This document shows positions 2,012 through 12,516 of a stretch of DNA of 13,110 nt, one piece after another. This DNA is from a virus. A program made the position numbers and the translations under genes. The notes beneath the pieces were generated by a model. The model made no database searches. It saw only the letters and a list, made by a program, of their open reading frames with translations, and was not told the DNA's origin. How positions within the stretch are numbered: position 1 is the stretch's first letter; each line of letters opens with the position of its first letter. Where the stretch lies: the UHGV virus genome UHGV-1616770; one strand, given 5' to 3'.

Positions 2012-3151
2012 TTAACCAAGAATCAGACAACCATGTGCCGGTTTCACTGACGAAACACCCCATGCCAGTCCAACTTCATAGCGCACCTGGCGATACTGAC
2101 GATACAGTGCAATCTGGAACGTAATCCCTGAAATCGGGTCCGTAACATTCATTACATCATCAGCATTATCGCCACCTTCCGGCATTGCCGGAGTACGGGA
2201 TGCCAGCAGAAACGCGTTGCGATCAAACGCCATATTTGCAGTAAAGGAGCCAACAACTGTGATTGCAGTATCATCGGCCAGATCCTGACGCAGTCCTGGC
2301 GCTGCAAGAGTAATCAGATTGCTGGTCGCTGCTGCCACAACATACTGATTCGGATCGCCAGCGAACGTAACAATCTGACCTGCAGAAATACTCCCCGAAC
2401 CAGTATCAATGGAAATAAGAACATCGCCTTCTTTTTTCTCGCCATTCACGAGATAACCTGTTGCAGCAACCTTTGGCGCTCGTTTTACACCTGCCGAACT
2501 GTGAATATTGAATCCCTCCAGACGCCCCAACACGCCCTCACGCAGTAGCTGTTCAGTGCCGGATTCATTCACTTTAAACAATACAGACTGTTTTCCGCGC
2601 AAATTAGCAATGGCAGTGGAACCAAGCACCATCTGCAGATCTGTTGTCGGTGCGCCGTTATCCTCCAGAACCTGACGAGCCAGAGCAGCATCAGAAAGAT
2701 CATCTTTAACACCAAATGGCGTTGTCCCTGCGGTTCCCACGGCGCGGGAAGCACCGAAATACAACGCACCAAGATCAGCCTCAACCTCGTTTGCAAGGGC
2801 GCGAAAAGCCTGCTTGAACTGATCAGCCAGAATGGTGTTGTAAGTCCCTGAAGGGCCAAGAGCCAGTTGTTCTTCACCATTCCATTTAACCGGCGCCATT
2901 TTGGATTTAGTAATTTTTACATCAACAGTGCCAATATTTTGATCACCGGTATTCGGAGCTGACGGCCCCGGTACGATATCTTCGGTTTTCGCCTCAGGCG
3001 CAACTGGCGCGGTTACCGTCTGATCTTTTGCTGCGGCGTCAGCTTTTGCGTTTTTTGCTACCGCAGGGATAAAACCCACCTGCTCACGGGATACAACATC
3101 CAGGGCGGTGTAAATAGTCGGGATCAACCCGGTCAGGGTATTTCCAGCCAT
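2012..3151 (-). CDS. Phage major capsid protein
   Basis: Long ORF directly downstream of the scaffold gene in the canonical portal / F-like / scaffold / capsid order. The ORF-track start at 3244 is TTG; I place the start at the in-frame ATG 3151..3149 (MAGNTLTG...), which has an AAGGAA RBS about 10 nt upstream, giving 379 aa. TAA stop at 2014..2012. Confidence 0.8.
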   Translation of the reverse strand: MAGNTLTGLIPTIYTALDVVSREQVGFIPAVAKNAKADAAAKDQTVTAPVAPEAKTEDIVPGPSAPNTGDQNIGTVDVKITKSKMAPVKWNGEEQLALGPSGTYNTILADQFKQAFRALANEVEADLGALYFGASRAVGTAGTTPFGVKDDLSDAALARQVLEDNGAPTTDLQMVLGSTAIANLRGKQSVLFKVNESGTEQLLREGVLGRLEGFNIHSSAGVKRAPKVAATGYLVNGEKKEGDVLISIDTGSGSISAGQIVTFAGDPNQYVVAAATSNLITLAAPGLRQDLADDTAITVVGSFTANMAFDRNAFLLASRTPAMPEGGDNADDVMNVTDPISGITFQIALYRQYRQVRYEVGLAWGVSSVKPAHGCLILG

Positions 3152-6622: not shown

Positions 6623-7924
6623 TTAAATCCGAAGTGATGTGACTCTTCCGGTCGGTTTGACAATAGGGAATTGCTTAACGATGAAATAACCTCCGGCATC
6701 ATTCGGGTGATCATTGCCAGATTTTTTATCAGGTTCCCCCTTCTCATCCCAGACCTGTTGCTCCAGAGATTCGGCATATAACGGGCAACGCTTCACATTA
6801 ACTTTATAGCGACGCTCACCATTGGCATTGCAGAACATTGCATTCATTGAGTTAACGCGATCTTTTACTGGCGGGTTCGAGCTGTTCACCACAACGTTAA
6901 AACCAGCCTGCTTAAGCTGGGCTATATCCGTCGTACTTGCGTTACTTGATTTTCTGGAATCCCCGGAAGCATCTGGATAAATATAAATTTCCCTCACTTT
7001 CCGGTAATCATTCCCATCATACAGCCAGAAGCGTTCTTTAATGATGCGGATCATATCCGGCGTATCGTAGGCATTGATGATTTCAGTTACCGCACATGGA
7101 AGCCCCAAACGCAGCACATGGACGATTCCCGCCATCTTTCCAACGTTAAAATCCATCCCAATATAAATCGGCTCCCCTGGCTGCTCCACTTCTTCGCAAT
7201 TATTCAGTTTCCGGTCAAACTGATGGTAAACAGTACCACTTGTCAGGTTAGTAAACTGTCCTCGAAGATAGGCTTTAATCAGCTCTGGAGGGTATGATTC
7301 AAGAAGCGAAGGAATGTAATCTGCTGGCAGGTTCTTTTCATTATCGAAAGTAGATGCCTGCACCAGACCATACAGTGAGGCCAGCTCTGTTTTTTCACGC
7401 ACGGCTTTAACAAACTGCTCGTAGACAAATTTGAATCCTTCCGGCGTGGTTGTAACGTCAATACCGTTGCGAAGTCCATCAATCTTATAACGCATACGCG
7501 CAATTATCTTGCGCCACGCCGTTCTGGCTTTTTCCTTCGGCAAAATGTCCAGTTCATCCACCAACGCATTACCAATTTTGAAACCGACGATCGTTTGTGG
7601 CTTCTCCATCGATCTGCAGATAGTGGTTCCCCGATACTGGCGTCCGTAATAAAAGTGAACCTCTTTATTTCCCTCATTAATTTTTACGTTCAATCCCCAG
7701 TCAGCAGCAACTTCTTCCACTGTAGGGTAAAAAATATCGCGAATTTGGGGATACGTTGGCGCAAAATATCCCTGATTTATACCAGGATGTTCCCAAATCC
7801 CCTTGCATATGCCACCACACCCAATCCATGTTTTACCCGAGCCAAAACCAGCGACATAGGCTTTAAATTTGTGGGGCATTGAAAGAAATCGCGCCTGAGG
7901 CACATTAAGCGTCGGAGAGATCAT
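6623..7924 (-). CDS. Terminase large subunit (TerL)
   Basis: Walker A motif GFGSGKT near the N-terminus and a hydrophobic-DE Walker B-like segment (ALVDELD). The ORF-track start at 7933 is GTG; I prefer ATG 7924..7922, which sits 8 nt after an AAGGAG RBS (ATG 7930 is a possible alternative), overlapping the terS 3' end. TAA stop at 6625..6623. Confidence 0.9.
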   Translation of the reverse strand: MISPTLNVPQARFLSMPHKFKAYVAGFGSGKTWIGCGGICKGIWEHPGINQGYFAPTYPQIRDIFYPTVEEVAADWGLNVKINEGNKEVHFYYGRQYRGTTICRSMEKPQTIVGFKIGNALVDELDILPKEKARTAWRKIIARMRYKIDGLRNGIDVTTTPEGFKFVYEQFVKAVREKTELASLYGLVQASTFDNEKNLPADYIPSLLESYPPELIKAYLRGQFTNLTSGTVYHQFDRKLNNCEEVEQPGEPIYIGMDFNVGKMAGIVHVLRLGLPCAVTEIINAYDTPDMIRIIKERFWLYDGNDYRKVREIYIYPDASGDSRKSSNASTTDIAQLKQAGFNVVVNSSNPPVKDRVNSMNAMFCNANGERRYKVNVKRCPLYAESLEQQVWDEKGEPDKKSGNDHPNDAGGYFIVKQFPIVKPTGRVTSLRI

Positions 7925-8999
7925 CTTCATCACTCCTTACTCTGGCATCAACCACATTAATATTGATCGCCACAGGTTGGGGATGTTCATTATCTTCCAC
8001 CGTTTCGATCTCTTTGCACAGCTTCTGGTTTTCCATTCTGCGCCGTTCAATTTCCAGTTCCTGTAGCCGCTTATCTGCACATAAAGCCCCACCAGCAGCA
8101 AGCAAACGCAACAATTCACGCCGGGCGGCAGCCTTATCCTCCAGCAGGATCTCAACACCAAATTTTCCGAGCTTTGCCCCTGCATATAATTGCCGCGCTT
8201 CCCCATCAAGCAGAGTGGTATCAGCCATATAAAGCTGCCCCGTTCCCTCACCGCAGCACTTCGGGCAGTCCGGATTGGGTATGGCGTTATCAACAAAGCC
8301 AAGGCCACCATATTCCGGCTCGGGTTTGCCATCTCTGGAGGCCTGCGACGCTGCCTTATCGAATTCTGCTATATCGCGCCACTGGTAGTGATGATTCTCG
8401 CCCCAGCAATAACGGCAGTTAACACGGCGAAATTGTGCCAACTGATTGGGGTCGGCCTGGACAATGGCCATCAACTGACTCACCAGTAAATCCAGGTCTG
8501 CGGTATAGCGTTTCTGGTACTGATTGCGGAAGTAGCTGATAGCACGAAAAACCTTAGGATTTCTTAGGAGCTGGCTGGCGGTTACGTAGGCCGCATTCCC
8601 CTCTGACTCGTATCCTGCCAGGCGATATGCCTCAACGAGTTTTTTCCCCTGGGCAACCAGCATTGCGAATTTCGCCTGCTGGTCAGAAACGCCGAATTCA
8701 TCGGGACAGAACGAAATTTCTTCCGCATCGCCCTCATTCAGGTACGCATCGGATACTGGCTTTTTTTCCTGAGATTTTCCGTTCCGCTTTTGTGCAGTCT
8801 GCGCAGATTTTTTCTGCGCACTTTTTTGCGCAGTTTTGCGCATTTCTGTCTGCGCATTTTTCGGAGGTTTTTTGATGTAACGACGGGCTGTTGCGTAATT
8901 CAGTCCCCTGGCTTCACACCATGCCACCGGAGATATACCGGAGCGGGTGTATTCAGCAATATACTCCTGCTGCAACGCCCCCCAGTCCGGTCTGCTCAT
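7905..8999 (-). CDS. Terminase small subunit (TerS), unusually long multi-domain form
   Basis: 364-aa ORF immediately upstream of TerL. It has an N-terminal HTH-like segment, a basic K/A/Q-repeat linker, a segment resembling the terminase small-subunit HTH (…AYRLAGYESEGNAAYVTASQLLRNPKVFRAI…), a Cys cluster (C-x2-C…HH…C-x2-CC) and a C-terminal coiled-coil-like tail. ATG at 8999..8997, AGGA RBS. Confidence 0.7.
   Translation of the reverse strand: MSRPDWGALQQEYIAEYTRSGISPVAWCEARGLNYATARRYIKKPPKNAQTEMRKTAQKSAQKKSAQTAQKRNGKSQEKKPVSDAYLNEGDAEEISFCPDEFGVSDQQAKFAMLVAQGKKLVEAYRLAGYESEGNAAYVTASQLLRNPKVFRAISYFRNQYQKRYTADLDLLVSQLMAIVQADPNQLAQFRRVNCRYCWGENHHYQWRDIAEFDKAASQASRDGKPEPEYGGLGFVDNAIPNPDCPKCCGEGTGQLYMADTTLLDGEARQLYAGAKLGKFGVEILLEDKAAARRELLRLLAAGGALCADKRLQELEIERRRMENQKLCKEIETVEDNEHPQPVAININVVDARVRSDEDDLSDA
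8791..8856. repeat. Cluster of palindromic TGCGCA hexamers interleaved with T/A tracts inside the terS 5' region
   Basis: Plus-strand TGCGCA at 8800, 8815, 8827, 8837 and 8851, plus TGTGCA at 8791, each flanked by T-runs, with 9-15 bp spacing. On the coding strand these encode the Ala-Gln-Lys repeat linker of TerS. Confidence 0.5.
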
Positions 9000-9002
9000 C
9001 AG

Positions 9003-9254
9003 TTAGTCCTGATTTTTATCCACCCTGAGTAGTTCGCGCAGGGCAAAGGCATCCCCTTTTCTGGCAAGCTTAAACAATGCCGCCCGTAGCTCGGCTTCAC
9101 CTTTCGCTCTGCCCTTACGGATGGACGCGTAAAAATTTGTCATTGCTTCCCGATTTTCTTTCAGTCGGTTCAGATCAACATCCAGAACGTCAGCGATTTG
9201 TTGTGCAGTCATCCGGCACGCTGCCAGAGACTCGACTTTCGAATACGGAATCAT
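9003..9254 (-). CDS. Small helix-turn-helix-like protein upstream of terS (packaging-associated or regulatory; function unknown)
   Basis: 83-aa ORF with ATG at 9254..9252 and a GGGGGTGA RBS; its stop at 9005..9003 is 3 nt before the terS ATG. The sequence is predicted helical and basic C-terminally (…MTAQQIADVLDVDLNRLK…). It overlaps the 3' end of the upstream reading frame by 65 nt. Confidence 0.5.
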   Translation of the reverse strand: MIPYSKVESLAACRMTAQQIADVLDVDLNRLKENREAMTNFYASIRKGRAKGEAELRAALFKLARKGDAFALRELLRVDKNQD

Positions 9255-9726
9255 TTGTCACCCCCATTAATATGCAGGGTGTCTTCTTCCTGTATTTTTC
9301 GTGAAGGATTTTTACTGCAGCGTTGTTCCAGGTGACCTGATGATGAATGCGTTTATGGCTGGCGCCCATCAGTGAGATTTTTACGCACGACGGCGCATAC
9401 ATGACGGAATAAAAACTTTTAACGTAGGTCCCGGAATCCAGATACAGCTCGGTCATTCCGCCGCTGTTTTTCTGCGTCTGTTTCTGCCCTAACTGGACAG
9501 CACCGATCGTCATAAACAATTCACCACGGCGACCGAGATTCGTGTACGTATTCACATCCTCGTTAATGCGCCCCATGAATGAGAACGGTCGATCAACCGA
9601 ACAGATAAAGCTGTTCATTGCCTTGCGTTTCACCCACGAAGCATGGCCGCCATTGTCACCAAGAAAATCCCCGCCCTGCGACATAGCGATGGAAAGCACG
9701 GGCATTGATTCGTAATACGCCAGCAT
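9190..9726 (-). CDS. C-terminal portion of the GT-A-like gene (same reading frame, downstream of the in-frame amber)
   Basis: 178 codons open in the same frame as 9769..10122 (10122 minus 9726 is 396, a multiple of 3). There is no Shine-Dalgarno before the ATG at 9726, so independent translation is doubtful. TGA stop at 9192..9190. Confidence 0.4.
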   Translation of the reverse strand: MLAYYESMPVLSIAMSQGGDFLGDNGGHASWVKRKAMNSFICSVDRPFSFMGRINEDVNTYTNLGRRGELFMTIGAVQLGQKQTQKNSGGMTELYLDSGTYVKSFYSVMYAPSCVKISLMGASHKRIHHQVTWNNAAVKILHEKYRKKTPCILMGVTNDSVFESRVSGSVPDDCTTNR

Positions 9727-9768
9727 TTCAGAAAGGATCGCATCCAGTTTCCTTATCGGGAAATAGGC

Positions 9769-10122
9769 CTAGTCATAGTTGCGATCCACCCGAAACTGGA
9801 ACTCGTGATAATCATCATCGAGCTGAATGAAGTATTTACACCCGACCAGTTTTGCCAGGTCGAAACAGGCATTACGGGCGTAAAAAATTGAGCGGCGGTC
9901 ACCAAAATTATCGGCTTCGTCAAAACGACTGGCAATATCGGCTTTGGAAAATACCAGCACCTGTTCACCAAATTCAGCCATGTACTGATGCCGTGTCTTA
10001 TCTTCATCATCAACAACGATAAAAATTTTCCCGGTATAGCCAGCACGACGCAACGTCCGGTAAGTCAGAACTTTGTCCGGTCGCCCGTGAGTCAGAATAA
10101 AGGCGCAAAAATCATCACGCAT
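9769..10122 (-). CDS. GT-A-fold glycosyltransferase-like protein, N-terminal portion ending at an in-frame amber codon
   Basis: Strong GGAGGAGG RBS and ATG at 10122..10120 overlapping the ParB-like gene stop (ATGCGTGA). The N-terminus has a strand-helix-strand pattern (FCAFILTHGRPDKVLTYRTLRRAGYTGKIFIVVDDEDK) and a later DxD-like motif (YFIQLDDDYHEF), resembling nucleotide-sugar transferases. The frame ends at TAG (plus 9769..9771 reads CTA). Confidence 0.55.
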   Translation of the reverse strand: MRDDFCAFILTHGRPDKVLTYRTLRRAGYTGKIFIVVDDEDKTRHQYMAEFGEQVLVFSKADIASRFDEADNFGDRRSIFYARNACFDLAKLVGCKYFIQLDDDYHEFQFRVDRNYD

Positions 10123-10903
10123 ATTCCTCCTCCCCGCTATGCATGATCGCCACCATGCGCTGCGTCATTCGGACAAATCCATTTTCAATAGCCTGCTGAT
10201 AATCAATGATCACCAGCGCCGACTCCTCGAAAAGGCACTGAATTTCAGCGGGGGCATGAGCGTAATAGTCCGCAATTCTGCTGAAATTAAACACCGTGTG
10301 ACGTTCTGCCGCACACAGGAGGAATTTCTCAATATCAGGATCAAGGGACGCCGAACGTATCCGGCTGATCAGCTCCTGAGTTTTCGTATCGTCGTACAGT
10401 TCACTGATATCCGGTTTACCGCCCGACGGCTCATAAACAGGCGTATCAATTTTCGTCGTATACGGCTCCTCCTTATTTCCTGTACCGGGCAAAACATCCG
10501 TCAACAGTTCATCAATTTCTGTCGGGCCGAAGCCTGTCAGGGAGACATCAAAATCAGCATTGATTAGGTCCGACAGCTCCATCCGCAACAGATCTTCATC
10601 CCAGCCAGCATTCATCGGTAGGCGATTATCTGCCAGGCGGTACGCCTTTTTCTGCTCATCCGTCAGGCCAGACAGAACAATGACCGGAACAGAATCCATT
10701 TTGAGCATTTCAGCCGCCATAACACGACCGTGACCCGCAATAATTTCGCCCTTTTCGTCAATCAGCACCGGATTAGTCCAGCCGAATTGCTTAATACTTT
10801 CTACCAGTTGTGCCACCTGCTCAGTACTGTGCGTCCTGGCGTTGTGCGCATACGGTGACAATTCTTGTAATGGGCGATAGACTATCTTTAATTTCTCGCT
10901 CAT
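10115..10903 (-). CDS. ParB-like nuclease domain (ParB/Srx fold) protein
   Basis: 262-aa ORF whose N-terminal domain matches the ParB N-terminal pattern (…YRPLQELSPYAHNARTHS…QLVESIKQFGWTNPVLID…EIIAGHGRVMAA…). ATG at 10903..10901 with an AAGG RBS; the stop overlaps the start of the downstream gene. Confidence 0.8.
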   Translation of the reverse strand: MSEKLKIVYRPLQELSPYAHNARTHSTEQVAQLVESIKQFGWTNPVLIDEKGEIIAGHGRVMAAEMLKMDSVPVIVLSGLTDEQKKAYRLADNRLPMNAGWDEDLLRMELSDLINADFDVSLTGFGPTEIDELLTDVLPGTGNKEEPYTTKIDTPVYEPSGGKPDISELYDDTKTQELISRIRSASLDPDIEKFLLCAAERHTVFNFSRIADYYAHAPAEIQCLFEESALVIIDYQQAIENGFVRMTQRMVAIMHSGEEEYA

Positions 10904-10918
10904 ACAGCCTTGCTTTAT

Positions 10919-10954
10919 GAATAAAACGCACCCCAGCAGCCAGTGCTACTGGGG
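10919..10954 (-). terminator. GC-rich hairpin plus U-tract downstream of trkG (putative intrinsic terminator)
   Basis: Plus CCCCAG (10931..10936) and CTGGGG (10949..10954) are reverse complements, with an inner CCAGT/ACTGG pair. On the minus-strand RNA the hairpin is followed by UGCG then UUUUAU (plus 10921..10926). It lies between the trkG stop (11041) and the ParB-like start (10903). Confidence 0.45.
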
Positions 10955-11040
10955 GCGGAGGTGTTGCTGGTAAAGTTAGGTATTGGATCAATGAGTGAGT
11001 CAATATAATATTAAACTCACAATTATAAATCAGCCATATA

Positions 11041-12498
11041 TTAGGAGCGCCAAAAAAAACCTGAAAACAATATAATAACAGGATAAATTTCAAGGCGACC
11101 AAGAATCATAGCTATGCACATTAAATATTTTGCAATGTCATTAAGCACTCCGAATGACGATGCAGTAGCCCCAAAACCTAATCCCATATTATTAATACAT
11201 GCAGCCACTGTTGCAAATGATGTAAGAAAATCATATCCCATACCATTTAACACCAGTATAAAAAACACCGTGAAGAGAGTATAAAGAAAAAAGAAACTCC
11301 ATACAGACCTCATTACACGATCTGTAACTATCTTCCCTCCTACATTTACACTCAACAACGCTCTGGGATGAGAAAGCTGATTTATCTCGTGTTTGCTTTG
11401 TTTGAAAAGTATAAGAAATCGAAGTGACTTAATTCCACCACAAGTTGAACCTATACATCCCCCAAAGAAACTTGACGACAGCAAAAACACTATCGTGTGC
11501 GTGGGCCAGTTTGCATAATCCTGCGTAGCTAAACCATTATCAGTGAGCATGGAGCTGGCAAGAAAAAACGAATGAATAAAACTTCCATGCAAGTCATACA
11601 TACCTATATGCCAGACCTGGAAAGAGGTAACAATGATCACCCCTAAGGCTATTAACAGAAAGAAACGAAGTTCAATATCTCTGATTAAAGGTTTTATCGT
11701 TTTCCTGCTAATAACAATATACCAAAGAGTGAAGTTGAAAGCCGATAGCAGGGAAAAAGAACCAGCCACCAGCTCAACCAAATAGTTATTAAAATATCCG
11801 ATACTCTCGCTATGAGTTGAGAAACCACCAAGCGAAACTGTGGAAATCCCGTGACAAATAGCATCAAACAAAGGCATTCCTGCAAGTCTATAACAGACAA
11901 TACAAGCAATACCTAATAAAGAATAAGTTATCCACAGTGTCCGTGACGTATCGGCCAGGCGGGGAGTGAGTTTGTCATCCTTAAATGGCCCCGGCATTTC
12001 TGACTGATAAAGCTTTGCACCACCAATACCCAATAATGGCAATACAGCAACCGCCAGAACAATAACTCCTAAACCACCTATAAAATTTAACTGTGACCGA
12101 TAGTACAAATATGCCCGAGGTAATGAACTAACATCATCAATTACAGTTGCTCCTGTTGTTGTTATTCCAGAAACCCCTTCAAACAGAGCATCAATGAACG
12201 TTAAATTAAGTTCTGAGTCAATCCATAAAGGGAATGCACTAATAACAGAAAACAAAATCCAAAACATTACAATTATAATAAACCCATCACGGGTACGTAA
12301 TTGAATGCCAGATTTCTTAGTTGTATACCACGCTCCGCCACCAATGCAAAAAAATATAACGAAAGTTATAAAGAAAACGAACAGGCTTTTTTCTTTATAA
12401 AACAATGCTACAACCATTGGTGGCAACATTGAAAGACTATAGAGCCAAACCAGGAACCCACACATATGAGTAACAACTCTTACATGAGATGTATTCAT
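11041..12498 (-). CDS. trkG: TrkH/TrkG-family potassium uptake protein (prophage moron)
   Basis: Polytopic membrane protein; from ATG 12498..12496 (MNTSHVRVVTHMCGFLVW…) it is 485 aa, which I recognise as E. coli Rac-prophage TrkG. The ORF-track start at 12516 is TTG and likely an over-extension. The gene is visibly more AT-rich than its flanks. TAA stop at 11043..11041. Confidence 0.9.
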   Translation of the reverse strand: MNTSHVRVVTHMCGFLVWLYSLSMLPPMVVALFYKEKSLFVFFITFVIFFCIGGGAWYTTKKSGIQLRTRDGFIIIVMFWILFSVISAFPLWIDSELNLTFIDALFEGVSGITTTGATVIDDVSSLPRAYLYYRSQLNFIGGLGVIVLAVAVLPLLGIGGAKLYQSEMPGPFKDDKLTPRLADTSRTLWITYSLLGIACIVCYRLAGMPLFDAICHGISTVSLGGFSTHSESIGYFNNYLVELVAGSFSLLSAFNFTLWYIVISRKTIKPLIRDIELRFFLLIALGVIIVTSFQVWHIGMYDLHGSFIHSFFLASSMLTDNGLATQDYANWPTHTIVFLLSSSFFGGCIGSTCGGIKSLRFLILFKQSKHEINQLSHPRALLSVNVGGKIVTDRVMRSVWSFFFLYTLFTVFFILVLNGMGYDFLTSFATVAACINNMGLGFGATASSFGVLNDIAKYLMCIAMILGRLEIYPVIILFSGFFWRS

Positions 12499-12516
12499 AT
12501 CTAAATATTCTTTCAA

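Follow-up and report, generated by a model that had tools for sequence, protein, structure and literature searches.

The pac site of phage P1 occupies 161 bp within pacA and comprises seven hexamers together with Dam sites, and packaging falls approximately 9-fold when these hexamers are synonymously recoded (PMC10028697). The TGATCA/G hexamers lie at pacA nucleotides (nt) 194, 201, 213 and 228 and at nt 324, 336 and 347, they are read in two reading frames, and the annotated pac cuts fall between the two groups, at nt 276-285. Experimentally known pac sites come from a handful of phages, and they are otherwise hard to predict. Here we describe a cluster of palindromic TGCGCA hexamers inside terS, the small terminase gene carried by a 13,110-nt stretch of the virus genome UHGV-1616770 (the window, numbered from its first letter), which is part of a Rac-like Escherichia coli prophage. 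An earlier note made from the sequence alone had proposed this cluster as a candidate pac site of repeated motifs within terS. That proposal gains strong support from the reading frames used by the hexamer across more than 100 genes, from its co-variation with a helix-turn-helix (HTH) domain and from the homology of that domain to P1 PacA; the cluster is probably the TerS recognition array of a P1-type pac site.

TGCGCA is found exactly at positions 8800, 8815, 8827, 8837 and 8851, and the variant TGTGCA at 8791, giving six sites in 66 bp with start-to-start spacings of 9, 15, 12, 10 and 14 nt. They correspond to codons 47-70 of terS, inside its 5' third, where the earlier note had placed them. 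Each hexamer adjoins a run of three to six T on the + strand, these runs being the complement of Lys AAA codons. Outside the cluster there are only three copies of TGCGCA in the window, and the count in any 66-bp stretch never exceeded three in 300 first-order Markov simulations of the window. The encoded peptide is N-A-Q-T-E-M-R-K-T-A-Q-K-S-A-Q-K-K-S-A-Q-T-A-Q, and on the coding strand the six copies read aaT GCG CAg, aTG CGC Aaa, acT GCG CAa, agT GCG CAg, tcT GCG CAg and acT GCA CAa. The second of these, the copy at 8837, is in another frame and is translated as Met-Arg-Lys, so Ala-Gln is not encoded by every copy; the earlier description of the repeat as the coding sequence of an Ala-Gln-Lys linker is right for most copies and wrong for this one. 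Synonymous resampling of the same peptide with the codon usage of the window gave five or more TGCGCA in 7 of 50,000 sequences (P = 1.4e-4), with a mean of less than one. The cluster far exceeds chance, and it exceeds the need of the encoded peptide.

Tandem Repeats Finder detects only imperfect arrays here, with periods of 10, 12, 15 and 36 nt, 75-86% matches and up to 17% indels, and the cluster has neither the constant period nor the single reading frame of a simple tandem repeat. The shifting period and the indels indicate a short motif clustered at variable spacing rather than a clean tandem repeat. The centres of the A-tracts are 11-23.5 nt apart with no helical phasing, and thus the intrinsic bending suggested in the earlier note is unsupported. 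Downstream in terS, four one-mismatch variants of the hexamer occur within approximately 100 nt (against 0.54 per 100 nt across the window), and may represent a degenerate second cluster (Table 1).

The cluster is kept in the 80 close relatives from IMG/VR that were compared, with in-frame copy-number changes of +9, -9, -12 and -36 nt and occasional mutations of single copies. The linker encoded by the repeat varies in length with in-frame indels ranging from -36 to +9 nt, and the commonest Rac allele has an Arg to Cys change in it. Absence of the repeats from close relatives had been named as evidence that would speak against a pac site; the repeats are present in all relatives examined. Their hexamers have decayed in the one examined relative that lost the HTH domain, phage Rac-SA53 (KU052037, L001 2794-3822), where terS is annotated as a gpO-terS fusion formed by deletion. 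The junction of this deletion falls within the repeat; of the five hexamers left there, two are unchanged and three are mutated, to TTCGCA, TGCGCT and TGCCCA. A separate interruption is seen in NZ_CP182145.1 (L002, ~2985-3005, equivalent to window position ~8855), where the insertion point of an IS1 in terS coincides exactly with the 5' (coding) edge of the cluster, and the gene is cut short behind its HTH domain.

The first 43 residues of TerS recur at the N-terminus of small terminases that otherwise differ in the remainder of the protein. More than 100 distinct terS genes with this N-terminal domain, drawn from numerous enterobacterial genera, carry a hexamer cluster directly after the domain-coding part, and the motif is still shared by genes with just 40-65% identity in this domain. 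In Klebsiella phage Kpn_R1 the domain is followed immediately by six TGCGCA, which between them use all three frames (T-A-Q, L-R-T and C-A); PhiR12_3 has seven, likewise in three reading frames. Yersinia phage vB_YenM_30.14 and Klebsiella phage RothD carry TGCGAAT in place of TGCGCA, and in Stx-converting phages four copies of GATCAT precede two of TGCGCA. Six TGCGCA also follow the HTH in a distant family of approximately 200 amino acids (aa), with the N-terminus DWHAIEADF and containing STLRKRI. One genome per species (56 loci, approximately 25 enterobacterial genera) was scanned together with IMG/VR, yielding 72 non-redundant loci. In 62 of these the putative recognition helix contains A-R-R-Y/H, and these 62 have 4.15 TGCGCA per locus in a single 60-nt bin at terS nt +120 to +179, against approximately 0.02 per bin across 3 kb of flanking DNA. 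The copies peak again, at approximately 1.5 per locus, at nt +300 to +419.

The reading frames of these copies bear directly on an alternative that was already raised in the earlier note, namely that the region encodes a slippage-prone, low-complexity Lys/Ala/Gln linker, its DNA repetition being the trace of recent duplications with no sequence-specific role. The in-frame copy-number changes of the relatives are real, the peptide is of low complexity and predicted to be disordered, and there are other viral genes in which TGCGCA results simply from the tandem repetition of a peptide. However, one hexamer is read in three frames to give different peptides (297 copies as x-Ala-Gln, 60 as Leu/Met/Val-Arg-x and 21 as Cys-Ala), with at least two frames used in 61 of 63 loci and all three in 14 of 63. 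Codon choice is extreme in the linker and nowhere else: Ala-Gln is spelled T|GCG|CA in 215 of 231 cases there, but in only 6 of 69 in the other parts of these genes. The irregular spacing, the survival of the motif at the low domain identities given above, and its switching along with the HTH helix (below) also argue against slippage. A peptide repeat or slippage is therefore insufficient, and the use of three frames with a codon bias limited to the linker shows that selection acts on the hexamer itself. The slippage explanation is largely refuted by the frame and codon data, and we consider it most improbable as an account of the motif, even though in-frame copy-number changes do occur. The repeat is selected as DNA and not as peptide. 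Of the two levels of selection envisaged in the earlier note, this supports that of the DNA. Relatives tolerate radical changes in the linker peptide.

A reverse scan, starting from viral contigs with three close TGCGCA, found the N-terminal domain encoded alongside in 73 of the first 120 contigs, and several more belong to the same family and are cut by the contig end. In the remaining contigs the copies belong to tandem peptide repeats (collagen-like GAQ, AAHDAA and MRKNS), to the linker of a replication-protein-like gene or to intergenic clusters. The replication-initiator-like HTH gene is found in L340 (IMGVR_UViG, minus; ORF, or open reading frame, at ~10536-11291 on the reverse complement), where the cluster in the linker (..RRLRKSAQTNAQICADECVNPRKRVRKSTQTSAQNSAH..) has an arrangement that resembles lambda O/ori. 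The intergenic clusters of 5-7 TGCGCA (L341 1554-1576, L266 1119-1141 and L324 1892-1924) are in unrelated viral contigs of 40-57% GC, in which the PacA-like domain was not found nearby.

The type of hexamer follows the HTH helix. The putative recognition helix of the window TerS is N-Y-A-T-A-R-R-Y-I-K, and the 62 loci with an A-R-R-Y/H helix have TGCGCA (mean approximately five copies) and essentially no TGCGAA. In the nine loci with an A-K-R-Y helix the motif is TGCGAA, often as the 12-bp palindrome TGCGAATTCGCA, and there is no TGCGCA. Among TerS proteins with the Stx-type body, a T-A-R-T-R-I-K helix is accompanied by 4-5 GATCAT (15 distinct sequences) and a T/S-A-R-R-Y-I/L-K helix by 4-7 TGCGCA (28 distinct sequences). 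There are zero exceptions to the pairing of helix and hexamer across these loci and sequences. The pairing holds on four C-terminal bodies (Terminase_2 with the Zn-type insert, short Terminase_2, GNQNALKHGGY and Stx PHROG-370) and extends to the distant family of approximately 200 aa. Two of the bodies, Terminase_2 with its Zn-type insert and GNQNALKHGGY, are unrelated to each other, and each of them occurs with ARRY/TGCGCA as well as with AKRY/TGCGAA. Since the pairs recur on unrelated bodies, the motif follows the HTH and not the remaining part of TerS. In the Stx-type terS genes (L086, L359-L395; nt ~140-270 for the whole array), the GATCAT copies are Dam sites and encode the peptide I/T-D-H-E/K; approximately 60 nt beyond them are two copies of AAAAAYTGCGCAAA in the Cys-Ala frame, a bipartite array of mixed motifs that recalls HEX4/HEX3 of P1.

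The relationship of the N-terminal domain to PacA is best seen with profile methods. With hhalign, residues 6-43 of the window TerS align in register with P1 PacA 3-40 (probability 90.8%, E 1.2e-6). The window TerS also matches PHROG 1711, the PacA family, over its N-terminal ~55 positions only (E 1.4e-4), and PacA matches the Stx-type TerS family PHROG 370 (E 1.7e-4). Pairwise BLASTP of the window N-terminus against PacA is marginal (E 0.033), so the claim of homology rests on the profile comparisons, which indicate that the two N-terminal domains are homologous. The PacA-like domain is N-terminal in every one of 191 representative proteins. In a few representative proteins (P0142 of 565 aa, P0201 of 304 aa, P0228 and P0246), the N-terminal 46-aa domain is matched in 4-7 separate stretches, and these proteins appear to be tandem arrays of the HTH-like domain.

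An AlphaFold2 (AF2) model of TerS has a predicted local distance difference test score (pLDDT) of 74-84 for residues 1-45, with helices at 6-20, 24-30 and 35-38, which is compatible with a helix-turn-helix. The score is below 50 for residues 52-93, the linker encoded by the repeat, and 65-88 for residues 99-160, the DNA-binding region of Terminase_2. The model is poor overall (mean pLDDT 48.8, shallow alignment) because the homologue search gave only close relatives (84-99% identity). A sequence search of the PDB with the N-terminal profile gave no meaningful match. The match of the C-terminal body to PF03592 scores 38.2 bits against a gathering cut-off of 26.1, covers profile positions 20-129 and is broken by an insertion with four Cys residues (C195, C198, C245 and C248) that are invariant in the alignment. 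The insertion (CRYC ... CPKC, residues 195-248, window positions 8255-8415) resembles a zinc ribbon and is common to Kpn_R1, Yersinia and other TerS proteins with the same body.

From the sequences, we infer the binding of TerS to the hexamers, its multivalency, the start of packaging at this locus and the position and direction of the cut. In TerS, a flexible basic linker would connect an additional, N-terminal PacA-type HTH to an ordinary oligomerising Terminase_2 body, and the DNA encoding that linker would itself carry the six hexamer copies read by the HTH. The HTH domains of one TerS oligomer could then bind neighbouring hexamers 9-15 bp apart, and these multiple contacts would give high avidity and specificity for phage DNA. 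TerL would be recruited and cut near the array, with headful packaging running from terS towards terL, which is leftwards in window coordinates.

Binding of the hexamers by the TerS HTH might instead serve mainly as an autoregulatory operator, or the repeat might act as an RNA element in the terS message, in either case controlling expression of terS and terL. The sites are inside the 5' coding region of terS itself, and the RNA of this region folds far better than shuffled sequences (minimum free energy -32.3 kcal/mol, z = -5.1), because palindromic hexamers pair with each other. On the other hand, it is the hexamer sequence that different genera have in common and not the pairing: copy number and spacing vary, altering the predicted hairpins, and the GATCAT and single TGCGAAT variants give weak stems or none. 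Furthermore P1, the one homologous system tested by experiment, uses its hexamers as pac elements (PMC10028697). We regard a mainly regulatory role as unlikely, though autoregulation and pac function are mutually compatible.

On the + strand, the same hexamers and their T runs form four sites resembling a terminator hairpin with its T run between 8789 and 8856, against 0.8 expected from shuffled sequences, and they could thus be intrinsic terminators against transcription opposing the late operon. This pattern arises automatically where palindromic hexamers stand beside Lys AAA codons, an adjacency that accounts for both the RNA folding and the antisense hairpins. A promoter-like site was not found nearby, the GATCAT and TGCGAA variants would form poor stems, and terminators need neither a fixed hexamer nor co-variation with an HTH; a terminator function thus seems extremely improbable. 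Neither RNA structure nor terminators explain a conserved hexamer identity with varying number and spacing, the variants that do not pair, or the tracking of the HTH.

Several observations weigh against the cluster being a P1-type TerS recognition array. The association of HTH and hexamer could derive from only two or three ancestral switches carried along by linkage, since the two are adjacent (less than 20 nt apart). The residues T-A-R-R-Y are found in P1 PacA too, although its hexamer is TGATCA/G, so recognition must depend on more than the four helix residues, and the homology with PacA spans approximately 38 residues. Within the Rac clade, single hexamer copies mutate freely and polymorphism at hexamer positions is only slightly lower than at other linker positions (0.061 vs 0.076). 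Some traits of the P1 site are missing from the window: there is one cluster and not two (4 + 3) flanking the cut, and the hexamers lack GATC (which is present in the GATCAT of the Stx-type relatives), so they would not be under Dam control. The IHF consensus WATCAANNNNTTR was not found near the cluster, having only two matches in the window, at 73 and 4565.

Virion-end or coverage data for this type of phage were not found in the literature searched. The same literature did not yield a description of TGCGCA repeats as pac, or of Rac-type or Stx-type TerS having a PacA-like domain. The ends of published phage records do not coincide with the repeats, the RothD record starting 455 nt upstream of terS and that of phi345 ending at the terS 3' end.

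The features of the window are listed in Table 1.

Table 1. Positions of the small terminase gene, its domains, the hexamer clusters and neighbouring genes in the window.
Feature	Positions	Strand	Basis or remark
terL, large terminase, T4-type N-terminal ATPase and RNaseH-like nuclease	6623-7933	-	Pfam Terminase_6N (E 4e-33), Terminase_6C
terS, small terminase subunit, 364 aa	7905-8999	-	Pfam Terminase_2, PHROG 51
Terminase_2 (SPP1 G1P-type) body, TerS aa 123-316	8052-8633	-	Pfam PF03592, E 2.8e-9
Possible degenerate second cluster: TGGGCA 8650, TGCGAA 8664, TCCGCA 8722, TACGCA 8743	8650-8748		Weak
Lys/Ala/Gln-rich linker, TerS aa 46-93, hexamers inside	8721-8864	-	AF2 low confidence or disorder
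Palindromic hexamer cluster, candidate TerS recognition array of pac	8791-8856		Exact motif positions, homologous clusters in relatives
PacA-like N-terminal helix-turn-helix domain, TerS aa 1-43	8871-8999	-	hhalign to P1 PacA, PHROG 1711 match, AF2
ParB-like gene	10115-10903		
trkG	11041-12516		

After terS and terL, the minus strand encodes the portal, a Mu-F-like head protein, the scaffold and a P22-type coat protein. DNA homologous to terS is found in 896 of 5,426 complete E. coli genomes, mostly at 90-95% identity and annotated as terminase small subunit; the copy in E. coli ATCC 8739 is 99.7% identical. A segment of terS 91% identical to the E. coli prophage gene also occurs in Actinobacillus phage vB_Apl-pPE4 (PP818812.1, 20980-21570), a record whose assigned host or assembly purity looks doubtful. 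Directly upstream of terS (9003-9254, minus strand) is an ORF for an 83-aa HTH-like protein that has no Pfam hit and matches positions 145-218 of the 319 of phrog_309 (E 2.5e-22), a family annotated as terminase small subunit; its product may be a second DNA-binding partner in packaging. Adjoining it, at 9190-10122 (minus strand), a TET-associated-glycosyltransferase-like gene (Pfam TAGT, PHROG 842) is broken by an in-frame stop (Gln to stop), leaving two ORFs of 117 and 178 aa. Phage vB_EcoS-666R9 (L003 4286-5218) has a 97.8% identical copy that is unbroken and encodes 310 aa.

These neighbours bring in one further candidate reader of the hexamers. The sites could be bound by another protein, such as the product of the 83-aa ORF or a host factor, or they could be the targets of a modification system, TGCGCA being a type II restriction target. 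The match of the upstream ORF to a family annotated as TerS is in keeping with the first possibility, and the adjoining remnants of a DNA-modification glycosyltransferase gene with the second. However, what the sites accompany from family to family is the N-terminal domain encoded by their own gene, despite differing neighbours and bodies, and clustered restriction targets would be selected against rather than for. We therefore hold either version to be very unlikely, and favour recognition by the HTH of TerS.

It is also possible, if somewhat short of probable, that the PacA-type HTH and its hexamer array together constitute a portable pac cassette of approximately 250 bp, which has been grafted onto at least four unrelated TerS bodies and has diversified in specificity. 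On an equally tentative footing, the specificities would number at least three (TGCGCA, TGCGAA/TTCGCA and GATCA(T)), with TGATCA/G of P1 as a fourth, each with matching changes in the helix. If so, packaging specificity would be exchanged between prophages, including Stx-converting phages, as a single module of protein and site, and this module would be predictable and re-engineerable from sequence alone.

Should the hexamer cluster be the TerS recognition array, the point at which packaging begins could be read directly from sequence for a very common class of enterobacterial prophages. This class includes the Rac-like elements in approximately one sixth of complete E. coli genomes, Stx-converting phages and many prophages of Klebsiella, Enterobacter, Citrobacter, Serratia and Yersinia. 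It would then be established where lateral transduction from such prophages starts and in which direction it runs, and there would be hints as to which co-resident prophages can package the DNA of one another. The recoding strategy for which P1 is the precedent (PMC10028697) could lead to packaging-deficient helpers or packageable plasmids, and the matched variants of HTH and hexamer offer a natural series for the study of sequence specificity in small terminases.

The earlier note cited P22, SPP1 and Sf6 as precedents. The TerS body of the window belongs to the same Pfam family (PF03592) as G1P of SPP1 and SF6, and in SPP1 pac overlaps the 5' end of terS and has repeated boxes bound by the HTHs of a ring oligomer (PMC5615212, PMC4737164). 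Unlike these, the window TerS has a separate PacA-like HTH ahead of the Terminase_2 DNA-binding region, and its sites are a discrete 6-bp palindrome with unphased A-tracts, whereas the SPP1 boxes are A-tract-rich and bent. The P22 (gene 3) and Sf6-type pac sites resemble the candidate site of the window in lying within a small-terminase gene, and in belonging to enterobacterial phages that package by the headful mechanism, and in prophage Gally of E. coli LF82 pac has likewise been placed inside terS by experiment (bioRxiv 10.1101/2022.10.28.514194). The P22/Sf6-type TerS families are unrelated to that of the window; this applies also to the 140-aa TerS of Gally, which rules out the Gally pac as a direct test. 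The P22 pac is a single asymmetric site of approximately 22 bp and not a hexamer array. In lambda, the ori iterons inside gene O are repeated sites of a DNA-binding protein in the linker-coding part of its own gene, but they serve replication and not packaging. The R-sites of lambda cosB are several copies of a short site read by the winged HTH of gpNu1, but they lie outside coding sequence, are IHF-dependent and belong to a cos system with defined ends.

The apt precedent is the pac site of P1. The two differ in the hexamer (TGCGCA in the window, TGATCA/G in P1), in the distance of the array from the helix (beginning approximately 10 nt after it in the window, 74 nt in P1) and in the body of the protein, which is Pfam Terminase_2 in the window TerS and has no Pfam match in PacA. 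In both, however, an array of palindromic TG..CA hexamers lies in the 5' part of the small-terminase gene, downstream of the part encoding an N-terminal HTH. In both, the hexamers are read in more than one frame, and their outer TG..CA is common to TGCGCA and TGATCA. Many relatives of the window gene also have a bipartite array like the HEX4/HEX3 arrangement of P1.

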